Positions 1,372 through 39,278 of a stretch of DNA of 64,000 nucleotides are shown piece after piece; position 1 is the stretch's first letter, and every line of letters starts with the position of its first letter. The notes under the pieces are model-generated. The model searched no databases, had not been told where the DNA came from, and saw only the letters and a program-made list of their open reading frames with translations. The stretch comes from Escherichia phage vB_EcoM_SCS4. The stretch is taken from sequence record ON506924; one strand, 5' to 3'. A program made the translations under genes and the position numbers.

Positions 1372-1395
1372 GGGAGCCTTCGGGCTCCCTTTTTC
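1372..1395 (+). terminator. Rho-independent terminator after gene 23
   Basis: Stem-loop gggagcc-ttcg-ggctccc followed by TTTTT immediately after the gp23 stop. Confidence 0.6.
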
Positions 1396-2057
1396 TATTT
1401 TATACGATAGCAATCAGGCATATCATCCGCATTTATCCAATTGCGAATAGTTTTAGGACTAACTTTAAAATGCTCCGCTGCGTAATCAGGATTATCAAAT
1501 TTAACGCCCTTTATACATATTGGAATAAATTTTTTAATACCACCAAGTTTTTCAGAAATAGCTTTACGATGTGAAATCGATATAGGTTTATTTTTTCGTG
1601 GATGAACATGTGTTTTATAATATTCATTGCGCCCTTTAACTCGCTTCGCAATAGTTTCATCAGATTGCTTAACGCCTGTTTTTGCCTTTGATATTTTTCG
1701 TTTAGCTTCCACAGTCATTCCTTCTTTTGTTCGTATTGATAACATATTACGATATGAAGGATCTTGCAAATGAACTATAACTGGATTTCCTCTGCCACCA
1801 ATAGCAGCATTATAGGTATCAGTTCTCATAACGAATTCCTCATTGACTAGTAAAGCTTCCATTTTATACATCTCCTCAGATGAGGAGAAAGAATAAAGAA
1901 TTTCTTTTTTAAAGTTATGAATACCATATTTTTTGATGGATTTTTTGATGTTTACGCCAGAACCCATATAACCATCGTTTTCGTCAAGAGTAGCATGAGC
2001 TCCGATGTAAATTTTTCCATTGATGATATTAGTAATTTGATATATTAAATATTTCAT
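1395..2057 (-). CDS. segD: GIY-YIG homing endonuclease SegD-like, free-standing between genes 23 and 24
   Basis: ORF 1395..2096; N-terminal KYLIYQITNIINGKIYIGAH...GYMGSG is a GIY-YIG motif; position matches T4 segD; start placed at the internal ATG (2057) that has a GGAG 11 nt upstream, longest ORF extends to 2096. Confidence 0.8.
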   Translation of the reverse strand: MKYLIYQITNIINGKIYIGAHATLDENDGYMGSGVNIKKSIKKYGIHNFKKEILYSFSSSEEMYKMEALLVNEEFVMRTDTYNAAIGGRGNPVIVHLQDPSYRNMLSIRTKEGMTVEAKRKISKAKTGVKQSDETIAKRVKGRNEYYKTHVHPRKNKPISISHRKAISEKLGGIKKFIPICIKGVKFDNPDYAAEHFKVSPKTIRNWINADDMPDCYRIK

Positions 2058-2121
2058 TTTAAACATCGCTCCGTTTGTATATGAATATAATATCATATTA
2101 CTTTGGTCTTGTAAATAACTT

Positions 2122-4964: not shown

Positions 4965-5033
4965 GTTATCGAGTTGGTGCCATTATATACATCATTTTCT
5001 GAGTGTGTTTTGTGTGCTTTTAAAATGAAGAAA

Positions 5034-5047
5034 GGGGCCGAAGCCCC
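5034..5047 (-). terminator. GC hairpin ggggccgaagcccc downstream of hoc
   Basis: Perfect 5-bp GC stem with GAA-containing loop, T-rich on the - strand after the stem; identical hairpin recurs at 23992-24005. Confidence 0.45.
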
Positions 5048-5053
5048 TTATGA

Positions 5054-5251
5054 TTATGGATAGGTATAGATGATACCAGTTTCTAAAGCAGTTTTATGAA
5101 TGATATATCCATTACGTGATTCTTGGACATCAACTTCTGGATAGTCTTTCATCATCTTCTGAAGAGTGTAACGATGCAGGTAGTATTTACTATCTGGATC
5201 TTCAGTTTTCCAATCTTTACCTTCTTCAGTCATTTTTTGGATTTCATCCAT
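5054..5251 (-). CDS. hoc: Hoc C-terminal segment (capsid-binding region), in frame with and downstream of an internal TAG stop
   Basis: 65-aa ORF in the same frame as the 305-codon Hoc N-terminal ORF; 305+1+5+65 = 376 codons, the length of T4 Hoc. Confidence 0.6.
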   Translation of the reverse strand: MDEIQKMTEEGKDWKTEDPDSKYYLHRYTLQKMMKDYPEVDVQESRNGYIIHKTALETGIIYTYP

Positions 5252-5266
5252 AACCCACCAACCGCA

Positions 5267-6184
5267 CTAGATGTAAGCTGAGCTACGGTGTGGAAGAGGA
5301 TGAACATAAGGTAATTCACCTTCTGGTTCTGGAGCAACTTTATCAGTTACCTGAACTTGACCTGTGGCTTTAACTGTTTTACTATCATAGTCAGTTGCTG
5401 TAACGACAGCAGTAACTTCAATAGTTTGACTTCCAATAGATGAGGTATCAACAGTATATACGTTAGTTGACCCTTCCACAGGAGAAGAATCTTTCTTCCA
5501 TGAGTAAGTAATTTGTGCTGCTTCAGGTGCGCCAGTAACATTAGCAGTAAATGTAGCCGAAGTATCTTGCTGAACATTAATAGAAGGAGGAGTCAATGTA
5601 ACCTGTGGATTCATTGTCTTCTTATTAACTGTCAATGATACTTCATTGGAAGTAACTTCTTTTGCATCATAATCTGTCGCGGTTACTTGAGCCACACACT
5701 TAATTGTTTTAACTCCGCTTGTGGTAGGAGTGTAATTGAATGTAGCAGAAGTTGCTTCGCCCACAGGAGAACCGTCAACGTACCATTGATACGTAGCAGA
5801 TGCACCTGGTGGCTGCGAAGCTAAGGCAGCGGTAAATTCAATAGCTGTTCCAATTACTCCAGCGTCAGGGCTATTAGGAGTTACAGCTAGGGTAGTCGTT
5901 TGTGTCTTATTTTGAACTGTGATAGTTGTAGAAGCTTCTGCTGTTTCAGCTTCAGCTTCTGGAACTGGGTTTGTTGCAACTACTTTAATAGTCTTTTGAC
6001 CGGCAGGTCCTTTTAGTACATAGCTAAAAGTTGCTGACGTTTCTTCCTGCGGAGCGTCGTCTACAGTCCAAGCATATGTAATAGGTCCATCTCCAGTTTG
6101 ACCACTGGGTGTAGCAGTAAACTGCTGAGTCTGATCTATAACTCCAGTAGGTGTTTTAGGAGTTATATCAACGGTAAAAGCCAT
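5267..6184 (-). CDS. hoc: Highly immunogenic outer capsid protein Hoc, N-terminal 305 codons with tandem Ig-like domains, ending at an in-frame amber codon
   Basis: Three repeated Ig-like segments (ITYAWTVDD..., ATYQWYVDG..., ITYSWKKDS...); stop at 5267-5269 is TAG and the frame continues into ORF 5054..5251. Confidence 0.85.
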   Translation of the reverse strand: MAFTVDITPKTPTGVIDQTQQFTATPSGQTGDGPITYAWTVDDAPQEETSATFSYVLKGPAGQKTIKVVATNPVPEAEAETAEASTTITVQNKTQTTTLAVTPNSPDAGVIGTAIEFTAALASQPPGASATYQWYVDGSPVGEATSATFNYTPTTSGVKTIKCVAQVTATDYDAKEVTSNEVSLTVNKKTMNPQVTLTPPSINVQQDTSATFTANVTGAPEAAQITYSWKKDSSPVEGSTNVYTVDTSSIGSQTIEVTAVVTATDYDSKTVKATGQVQVTDKVAPEPEGELPYVHPLPHRSSAYI

Positions 6185-6193
6185 AAGTTATCC

Positions 6194-6874
6194 TTATTTT
6201 AATGTTATGAAAGAAGAATTGCGTGTTTCACGAATTAGAACTGATCCGTCACGATTAATGTAGTAAATTAAGCTAAATAAAGTTTGGTGTGCCGACGCGT
6301 GTTCAAAACTAGTTGGGTGAGATTTCCAATCCGGAGTTTCAGCAATCCACTGGTAAATCCACCAAGGAACAGTGCAGAATCCTGGATTTTTTCCAATCAG
6401 CTGAAGATTCGGACTAAAGTTTTCCGGAAGAGTAAATACAGACGGCTTTTCAGATTCAATAATCTCAGCTACAGCCTGTTCGAATTTTTCTTCAACAAAA
6501 GGAGTATCTTCAATCAAAACATCGGTATTTTCAGGAATTTTATCCGTTTCTATGACTTCAATTTTAATGTCAGATTTAACCGGAGAATCAATCAGAAGTG
6601 CTGCTTCTGGATTGACTTCTTCATCGTCATATTTTAATCCCTCTGCAGCATCTGCAGCATCGATTAAGTCTTTAATAGATAACCCATCAGTCTCTGGCAT
6701 AGGTTCACTAGCGAGCTTCTGGAGGGCTTCTTCAATATCAATAACGATATTATCAAAAGATTTATTCTTTTTGACCTTTATACCAAACTGTTCAGCATAT
6801 TCAGCTAATTTAGCTTTAGCTTCTTTATTATCATCAAGAGCCTTCAACTCTGCAATATAATCTTTATCTATCAT
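6194..6874 (-). CDS. inh: Inh, inhibitor of prohead protease
   Basis: 226-aa acidic ORF between hoc and segE as in T4. Confidence 0.8.
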   Translation of the reverse strand: MIDKDYIAELKALDDNKEAKAKLAEYAEQFGIKVKKNKSFDNIVIDIEEALQKLASEPMPETDGLSIKDLIDAADAAEGLKYDDEEVNPEAALLIDSPVKSDIKIEVIETDKIPENTDVLIEDTPFVEEKFEQAVAEIIESEKPSVFTLPENFSPNLQLIGKNPGFCTVPWWIYQWIAETPDWKSHPTSFEHASAHQTLFSLIYYINRDGSVLIRETRNSSFITLK

Positions 6875-6923: not shown

Positions 6924-7541
6924 ATGTACCACTTTGTATATGAAACAACAAATCTAATAAATGGTAAAAAGTATATAGGAAAACACTCTACTGATGACTT
7001 GAATGATGGTTACCTTGGTTCCGGTAAGGCAATTCAGCAGGCTATAAAGAAGTATGGTGAAAACAATTTCTCTAGAACAATACTAAAAGAGTTTAAAACT
7101 TCCGAAGAAGCGTACATGTATGAAGAAGAAATTATAACTCCTGAAATAATAAAAAGCAAAAATTATTATAATATGAAACCTGGTGGAATTGGTGGAATTG
7201 TTATGACTACAGAGGTTATAGCAAAGATGAAAGAATCTTCCGCTAAGAGATTTGAAAACTCACCGGGCACGGTATTAGGTACAACTTGTTACACTAATGG
7301 AACTAAAAATATTTTTATTAAACCTGGAGAACTTGTTCCAGAAGGATTTGTAAAAGGGATGGTTCATCCTAATAGAAAGTCCAGAAAAGGATGTAAAGTC
7401 AAACCGACTACCACAGGAACTTTTTGGGTCAATAATGGCGCAATAAATAAATTAATACAACCAGACGGTATTATTCCCGACGGATTTATTAAAGGTCGTC
7501 TCATGAAAAGAGATTCTAAAGGCAAATTTAGTAAGGCATAA
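6924..7541 (+). CDS. segE: GIY-YIG homing endonuclease SegE-like
   Basis: 205-aa ORF, N-terminal YHFVYETTNLINGKKYIGKH...GYLGSG GIY-YIG motif; T4 segE position upstream of uvsW. Confidence 0.85.
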   Translation: MYHFVYETTNLINGKKYIGKHSTDDLNDGYLGSGKAIQQAIKKYGENNFSRTILKEFKTSEEAYMYEEEIITPEIIKSKNYYNMKPGGIGGIVMTTEVIAKMKESSAKRFENSPGTVLGTTCYTNGTKNIFIKPGELVPEGFVKGMVHPNRKSRKGCKVKPTTTGTFWVNNGAINKLIQPDGIIPDGFIKGRLMKRDSKGKFSKA

Positions 7542-37401: not shown

Positions 37402-37713
37402 TTATACCGCCATCTTTCCTTTAATTGGCGGGTGAGATACATAGTTGTTAAGAACGAAATTATGCGGCTTTGCGAATTGACTCAACCAAAATACCTGCGA
37501 TTCTGTGTTCCATTCATCAAATTCATCTGGAAATTTTAATTGTAATTCGCATAAATCCATAGGTTCACGACGCAAAATTTCTTTACATTGTTCTACGTGA
37601 TTCATATAGATATGAGTATTACCGCCAGAAAATATCAAATCTCCAGGAATAAGATTACACATCTTAGCTACAATATGAACTAACGCAGCATATGATGCAA
37701 TATTAAACGGTAG
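37402..37713 (-). CDS. td: Thymidylate synthase, exon 2
   Basis: Exon begins CTACCG (LPFNIASYA...) right after the intron terminal G; exon 1 + exon 2 = 286 codons. Confidence 0.9.
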   Translation of the reverse strand, partial: LPFNIASYAALVHIVAKMCNLIPGDLIFSGGNTHIYMNHVEQCKEILRREPMDLCELQLKFPDEFDEWNTESQVFWLSQFAKPHNFVLNNYVSHPPIKGKMAV

Positions 37714-38729
37714 CATTATGTTCAGATAAGGTCGTTAATCTTACCCCGGAATTATATCCAGCTGCATGTCACCATGCAGAGCAGACTATATCTCCAACTT
37801 GTTAAAGCAAGTTGTCTATCGTTTCGAGTCACTTGACCCTACTCCCCAAAGGGATAGTCGTTAGGCATTTATGTAGAACCAATTCCATTTATCAGATTTT
37901 ACACGATAAGTAACTAATCCAGACGAAATTTTAAAATGTCTAGCTGCATCTGCTGCACATTCAAAAATAACCCCATCACATGAAATCTTTTTAATATTAC
38001 TAGGCTTTTTACCTTTCATCTTTTCTGATATTTTAGATTTAGTTATGTCTGAATGCTTATGATTAAAGAATGAATTATTTTCACCTGAACGATTTCTGCA
38101 TTTACTACAAGTATAAGCAGAAGTTTGTATGCGAACACCACACTTACAAAACTTATGGGTTTCTGGATTCCAACGCCCATTTTCACTTCCATATTTACCA
38201 TAAAGAGCTTTTCGGCCTTTTACGCCGAGTTTAAGCATATTTACTTTAACAGTTTCAGAGCGTTTCTTGATAATTTCTTCTTTTAATGGATGTGTAGAAC
38301 ATGTATCACCAAACGTTGCATCAGCAATATTGTATCCATTAATTTTAGAATTAAGCTCTTTAATCCAAAAATTTTCTCGTTCAATAATCAAATCTTTCTC
38401 ATATGGAATTTCTTCCAAAATAGAACATTCAAACACATTACCATGTTTGTTAAAAGACCTCTGAAGTTTTATAGAAGAATGGCATCCTTTTTCTAAATCT
38501 TTAAAATGCCTCTTCCATCTCTTTTCAAAATCTTTAGCACTTCCTACATATACTTTATTGTTTAAAGTATTTTTAATCTGATAAATTCCACTTTTCATAA
38601 ATACCTCTTTAAATATAGAAGTATTTATTAAAGGGCAGTCCTACAATTTAGCACGGGATTGTCTACTAGAGAGGTTCCCCGTTTAGATAGATTACAAGTA
38701 TAAGTCACCTTATACTCAGGCCTCAATTA
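37714..38729 (-). mobile_element. Group I self-splicing intron in td (1016 nt) carrying the I-TevI gene
   Basis: 5' splice site after GGU of exon 1; intron 5' region reads UAAUUGAGGCCUGAGUAUAAGGUGACUUAUACUUGUAAUCUAUCUAAACGGGGAACC; ends in G before exon 2. Confidence 0.88.
37861..38598 (-). CDS. I-TevI: Intron-encoded GIY-YIG homing endonuclease I-TevI
   Basis: 245-aa ORF with GIYQIKN...KVYVGSA GIY-YIG domain and C-terminal zinc finger/DNA-binding region, inside the td intron. Confidence 0.92.
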   Translation of the reverse strand: MKSGIYQIKNTLNNKVYVGSAKDFEKRWKRHFKDLEKGCHSSIKLQRSFNKHGNVFECSILEEIPYEKDLIIERENFWIKELNSKINGYNIADATFGDTCSTHPLKEEIIKKRSETVKVNMLKLGVKGRKALYGKYGSENGRWNPETHKFCKCGVRIQTSAYTCSKCRNRSGENNSFFNHKHSDITKSKISEKMKGKKPSNIKKISCDGVIFECAADAARHFKISSGLVTYRVKSDKWNWFYINA

Positions 38730-39278
38730 ACCCAAGAAAACATCTACTGAGCGTTGATACCATTGAAGGTCAAGGTATCCATTACGCACATTAAACTGAT
38801 AGAACATATGACAAGGCGGTAATGCCATATATTTAAGTTCAGCTGGATTCCATGCAGAAACAATTTGACGCCTATCATTTGGCAATTTTTTAATACGATC
38901 AACAACTTCTATAATTTGGTCTACACCGCCAAAATCGCGCCATTGTTTTCCATAAATTGGACCAAGTTCACCGCTATGGTATCCTAAATCTTTTGCTTGA
39001 TTTTCGTAATTTTCATCCCAGACTGTTTTGCCTTGAATTAATGAATCATGTTGAATTAATCGTAAATCATTGACATTTGTGCTTCCCGATAAAAACCATA
39101 TTAGCTCAGCAATGCAAGCTTTCCAGGCGAGCTTCTTAGTTGTTACTGCAGGAAAACCTTTAGTTAAATCCCAGCGTAATTTAGTACCGAACAAAGCAAT
39201 TGTTCCTGTGCCCGTTCTGTCATCGGTTTCATAGCCATTTTCAAAAATGTCTTTAATTAAATCTTGGTATTGTTTCAT
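38730..39278 (-). CDS. td: Thymidylate synthase, exon 1
   Basis: 183 codons ending ...DVFLG, with an in-frame TAA directly after the 5' splice site. Confidence 0.9.

Follow-up and report, generated by a model that had tools for sequence, protein, structure and literature searches.

On the mature phage head, one copy of Hoc occupies the centre of each gp23* hexamer. The capsid-binding domain of this protein was assigned by Fokine et al. to residues 281–376, and it consists of a four-stranded beta-sheet lying under a three-helix bundle, which docks on six gp23* subunits (PMC10385173). Trp306 is one of the bulky side chains of the beta-sheet that touch gp23*, the highly conserved Trp309 and Trp310 contact it as well, and so does the region Val353–Tyr360 (PMC10385173). 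Hoc is the most immunogenic protein of the capsid and mediates Ig-domain adherence and aggregation behaviour (PMC10385173). The viability of the phage is unaffected by amber or deletion nulls of hoc, and for the amber or deletion nulls of hoc and soc in T4 the same holds for production, viability and infectivity (PMC3012670). A spontaneous mutant of T4, HAP1, carries the substitution C496T, which creates an ochre stop at codon 166, and its capsid has no Hoc (PMC10580926).

The hoc gene analysed here is interrupted by a single in-frame amber codon. It lies in a stretch of 64,000 nucleotides, referred to below as the window, which corresponds to the final 64 kb of the record of Escherichia phage ECML-134 (JX128259.1 / NC_025449.1, 166,783 bp). 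The 1.5 kb around the amber codon are 100% identical to this phage, and any position x of the window is converted to the position in NC_025449.1 by adding 102,783. ECML-134 is a Tequatrovirus isolated from water with E. coli O157:H7 as the isolation host. In the public record, the two pieces of hoc are annotated as adjacent "Hoc-like head decoration" CDSs, ECML134_177 and ECML134_176. The coordinates of the features of the locus are collected in Table 1.

Table 1. Features of the hoc locus of ECML-134, given in positions of the window.
Feature	Position	Strand	Description
inh (prohead protease inhibitor)	6194..6874	-	Upstream neighbour of hoc
hoc codons 1–305	5270..6184	-	ECML134_177, 305 aa; three Ig-like domains and residues 281–305, i.e. 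the first 25 of the capsid-binding domain; Pfam hits and alignment to T4 Hoc
Amber TAG in place of TGG (Trp306)	5267..5269	-	TGG in four relatives
hoc codons 307–376	5057..5266	-	In frame and undecayed; domain limits from PMC10385173
65-aa ORF, ECML134_176	5054..5251	-	Starts at Met311 inside Hoc, 15 nt past the TAG; ends at the natural TAA (5054-5056)
Hairpin AAGGGGC-TTCG-GCCCCTT with T-run	5032..5049	-	Intrinsic-terminator-like; directly after the hoc TAA

The 5' open reading frame (6184..5267, minus strand) comprises an ATG and 304 further codons, ends with ...LPHRSSAYI and is closed by the TAG. Beyond it, the same frame reads CGWWVMDEIQ (CGWWVMDEIQKM)...GIIYTYP over 70 codons until the natural TAA (5056..5054). 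They supply the rest of the capsid-binding domain, 70 residues that form its three-helix bundle and later beta-strands. The sum of 305, 1 and 70 codons gives 376, the length of T4 Hoc. When Trp306 was restored, the 376-residue protein aligned with T4 Hoc (PDB 5vf3_Z) without gaps over residues 1–376 (E = 4.8e-211), and the Pfam models Ig_3, PKD and I-set matched residues 99–278, which shows that the N-terminal string of Ig-like domains is present. As each piece is part of Hoc, a chance pattern of open reading frames is ruled out. The earlier note, made from the letters alone, had described one in-frame amber in a gene of full T4 Hoc length; its coordinates proved exact and its codon count is borne out by the gapless alignment.

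The uninterrupted 376-codon hoc genes of T4, T4_ev240, SHFML-26 and GiZh all have TGG at codon 306 (context SAYIWCGWWVMDE). This settles which sense codon was replaced, for which the earlier note had considered CAG, TGG and TAC: it was TGG (Trp). The lesion is thus one G>A transition on the coding strand at position 5268 of the window (108051 in NC_025449.1), and its context, CATCT[G>A]GTGCGG, is not a homopolymer. As hoc is a single uninterrupted gene in all four relatives, the view that a nonsense codon splits one gene, and that these are not two genes, was upheld; no relative was found in which Hoc ends here and an unrelated gene follows. An intact C-terminal capsid-binding domain is not encoded in ECML-134, where the TAG at codon 306 splits the conserved coding sequence. 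Read from its sequence, the locus is best described as a hoc gene with a null allele and not as an intact hoc.

The surroundings of the gene are those of T4, with the order inh-hoc-24.3-24.2-rnlB common to both phages. The hairpin 3' of hoc matches the position of an annotated terminator in phage GiZh and marks the conserved end of the gene. The T4 late-promoter consensus (TATAAATA) has no match on the minus strand just upstream of inh-hoc. Two genes for homing endonucleases of the GIY-YIG / Seg type were also seen in the window, both in T4-like placement: a segE-like one between inh and uvsW (6924-7541, plus strand) and a segD-like one between genes 23 and 24 (1395-2066, minus strand).

Because the alignment with T4 Hoc is gapless, the residue numbering of the structural work (PMC10385173) can be transferred directly to the protein of ECML-134. 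Of the 96 residues that make up the capsid-binding domain, the amber product keeps 25 and loses the other 71. In a non-suppressing host, translation would stop after residue 305 and the product would be a soluble fragment of three Ig-like domains, unable to dock at the centres of the gp23* hexamers. The virions of ECML-134 would then have no Hoc fibres, and its heads most likely lack Hoc altogether. Growth of the phage should be normal, because Hoc is dispensable, and the consequences would be confined to traits that depend on Hoc, such as antigenicity, adherence to mucus or surfaces and aggregation behaviour.

To see how widespread the TAG allele is, an 81-nt query centred on the stop was used. 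It matched 995 phage records, and identity of 100% was found only in the two records of ECML-134, while about 20 records differed from it by exactly one base. Exact-pattern scans of the IMG/VR viral contigs, of 185,579 species-representative genomes and of the JGI metagenome contigs each gave 0 copies of the allele. At the protein level, the exact look-up of the 305-aa product returned ECML-134 only. Other contigs with an identical call of the 65-aa ORF either have the TGG or are cut at the contig end, and the 65-aa piece, used in a homology search, brought up just 9 short fragments without any full-length Hoc, too little for a survey of how often Hoc is truncated. Exactly the 305-aa and 65-aa products of ECML-134 also stand under a third NCBI accession pair, URQ05371.1 / URQ05370.1, which may come from a second deposition or from independent sequencing of this stock; no nucleotide record behind it was found in the phage collection.

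One further record drew attention at this codon. In OQ031495.1, an UNVERIFIED partial genome, a run of 8 N (locus 1668-1675) lies exactly over hoc codons 305–307, and another run of 62 N lies 200 nt upstream of it. We rejected it as informative for codon 306, as this is a low-quality assembly with genuine N-runs and the overlap is an apparent coincidence.

The state of the codons downstream of the stop bears on its age. Over codons 307–376, ECML-134 shows 6 synonymous substitutions relative to SHFML-26 and 4 relative to GiZh, with 0 non-synonymous ones in either comparison, and codons 281–305 are the same in all three phages. Purifying selection has thus acted on the 3' part of hoc until practically the present day. 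With all 70 amino acids behind it unchanged, the stop either arose very recently or is not real. The suggestion of a long-standing natural lineage deficient in Hoc is therefore not supported, the allele being a singleton and the codons behind it free of decay. The best-fitting origin is a spontaneous mutation that arose recently in the sequenced stock.

A "spread" sample of 59 further records with a match to the gene was surveyed for disruptions of hoc. The frame was broken in 4 of them (~7%), namely vB_EcoM-172859UKE1, UPWr_E2, ECCR664 and the laboratory mutant T4_7t1, and further breaks were seen beyond this sample in IME537 and FriedrichZschokke (Bas41). Disrupted hoc genes are thus not rare in the databases. 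In IME537 (1185-1208), 172859UKE1 (1053-1074) and UPWr_E2 (765-786), a change of +/-1 nt hits one shared A7 run (GTTAAAAAAATT, ...GVKKIKC...), which lies in an Ig-domain repeat; in three unrelated genomes these changes could be slippage mutations at a hot spot or recurrent homopolymer sequencing errors. At the same spot, ECML-134 reads AAAACA and has no A7 run. The 305-aa piece as a query found 5 IMG/VR loci; hoc is complete in 4 of them and intact in all 4, too few for an estimate of frequency.

Some of the records are of interest in their own right. In FriedrichZschokke / Bas41 of the BASEL collection (MZ501067.1; hoc at locus 326-1456), 1 nt is deleted near hoc codon 277 (CAAGTT > CAGTT), and only a 278-aa "capsid whiskers protein Hoc" is annotated there, the C-terminal domain being left without annotation. 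In many relatives hoc measures ~1.41–1.42 kb and includes a fourth Ig-like repeat, and at one IMG/VR locus the gene runs to 472 codons; close relatives of T4 thus do not all have the same number of Ig domains.

Whether the stop can be bypassed depends on tRNAs and on starts downstream of it. ARAGORN found nine tRNA genes in the whole genome of ECML-134 (Arg-tct, Asn-gtt, Tyr-gta, Met-cat, Thr-tgt, Ser-tga, Gly-tcc, Leu-taa and Gln-ttg). None of them has the CUA anticodon, and a suppressor tRNA encoded by the phage was rejected on this ground. Suppression by the host was surveyed for supE only: of 5,424 complete E. coli genomes, 155 carry the supE-type tRNA-Gln(CUA) allele, and among the matches listed all carriers (40/40) are laboratory derivatives of K-12. 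A supE, supF or supD host would insert Gln, Tyr or Ser, respectively, and not Trp at residue 306, which contacts gp23*.

In both E. coli and T4, translation is known to restart behind nonsense codons, and some re-initiation at Met311 is conceivable. The split could be functional, either with programmed read-through yielding some full-length Hoc or with the piece started at Met311 binding to capsids or complementing the 305-aa piece. In favour of it, an ATG follows 15 nt past the TAG with a moderate anti-SD match in the 20 nt upstream (-5.4 kcal/mol; the median of 73 annotated genes is -5.8). However, this pairing lies only 2-3 nt from the ATG, the same sequence is present in wild-type hoc, and the flanks are identical to those of wild-type genes, so there is no dedicated signal. 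Programmed read-through is excluded, as the stop is not conserved; a stop absent from all other records is also not one that was selected for, and the phage has no suppressor tRNA. Neither fragment has a complete beta-sheet and helix bundle, and residues 306–310, with the gp23*-contacting Trp306, Trp309 and Trp310, are missing from both. A role for the re-initiated 65-aa fragment seems unlikely, because it would be without the first two strands, all three of these tryptophans and the Ig domains. We consider a functional split highly improbable.

The choice then lies mainly between a real mutation and an error. We think it very probable that TGG>TAG is a genuine, recent allele of the sequenced ECML-134 stock, and G:C>A:T transitions are the commonest spontaneous substitutions. 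If, instead, the consensus base call or the assembly were wrong, the real phage would have TGG and an intact hoc. The singleton state of the allele (995 phage records and three contig collections) would fit such an error, the total lack of downstream decay would be equally expected, and the frame breaks in the A7 homopolymer of other T4-like genomes could well be sequencing errors themselves. The paper on the ECML-134 genome has no mention of hoc, amber codons, the sequencing platform or coverage. On the other side, the lesion is a substitution and not an indel, it lies outside any homopolymer, and the whole-genome annotation shows the essential genes to be intact. The pair of signs that would mark an artefact, a homopolymer context and other broken conserved genes in the assembly, was not found. 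The only other broken gene, modB, has a 7-bp tandem duplication, which is a real type of mutation. An error at codon 306 appears unlikely to us. Still less probable, and hardly credible to us, is a laboratory amber allele, an origin that the earlier note had listed, whether brought in by recombination with a T4 amber stock or kept on a suppressor host. It is true that the 80 nt around the codon equal T4 except for the amber and that supE-type tRNA-Gln(CUA) is common in laboratory K-12 strains. But about 20 wild isolates share these 80 nt just as fully. Between ECML-134 and T4, 151 of the 1131 nt of hoc differ, and the 70 codons after the stop contribute 6 synonymous differences. The phage comes from the environment, isolated from water on E. 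coli O157:H7, and the 81-nt query found no hoc amW306 in any T4 record among its 995 matches.

Other split genes of ECML-134 were inspected alongside hoc. Within the window, hoc is the only gene that is abnormally split; the uvsW/uvsW.1 and Rz/Rz1 pairs and the td intron are normal. The pieces of thymidylate synthase flank a homing-endonuclease gene (37402-39278 in the window, 140185..142061 in the record, minus strand), and this is the group I intron arrangement of T4 and, unlike the hoc lesion, a normal one. Outside the window, modB, the gene of an RNA polymerase ADP-ribosylase (NC_025449.1 11786..12416, minus strand), is split into CDSs of 59 aa and 161 aa. The break is the tandem duplication TCGGCAG-TCGGCAG, which makes the gene 631 nt long versus 624 nt in ~500 relatives, and the duplication is absent from all of these. 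Such a change is not a typical sequencing artefact. It adds a second loss-of-function lesion to that in hoc, again in a dispensable gene, and shows that the stock does harbour lesions of this kind.

Taken as a genuine allele, the amber is a simple null (Trp306>TAG) of a dispensable decoration gene: the allele is new, the kind is well known. Its value is practical and not conceptual, as nonsense nulls of hoc are textbook cases and harmless to growth. ECML-134 is one of the three phages of EcoShield, a commercial, FDA-cleared biocontrol cocktail, and a production strain without Hoc would differ from T4 in immunogenicity, adherence and aggregation. It is also the RefSeq exemplar of its species with hoc annotated as two genes, and ECML134_176 and ECML134_177 should be treated as one disrupted gene. 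It could further be imagined that the loss of Hoc is a recurrent outcome of "domestication" in cultured T4-like phages, Hoc being of no use, or a slight burden, when phages are propagated and purified on a large scale outside the gut, and that both the amber of ECML-134 and the other frame breaks were fixed in this way. If this were true, a food-safety phage on the market would lack Hoc by nature, with reduced antigenicity and no adherence to mucus; we regard this explanation as doubtful.

Given the other deposited hoc frameshifts and the break in modB, the hoc of ECML-134 is an ordinary case. As in IME537, 172859UKE1, UPWr_E2, ECCR664 and FriedrichZschokke/Bas41, the gene is interrupted while its flanking genes are intact. 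In those five phages, however, the change is a +/-1 frameshift, whereas ECML-134 has a nonsense substitution, the only one seen, all other breaks of hoc being frameshifts or deletions. A close parallel is HAP1 (T4 delta-Hoc), in which one transition likewise creates a premature stop in the hoc of a T4-type phage and which is viable with a Hoc-less capsid. The stop of HAP1 (C496T, Gln166>ochre) arose in T4 itself under laboratory selection and falls at 44% of the protein. In contrast, that of ECML-134 (G>A, Trp306>amber) falls at 81%, within the capsid-binding domain, and belongs to an O157:H7 phage from the environment that is in commercial use and for which the loss of Hoc is predicted from the sequence. 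Like the classical hoc/soc nulls of T4 used in phage display, it is a null allele of a dispensable decoration gene; unlike those, which were deliberately made or selected, it sits in a deposited wild-type reference genome.
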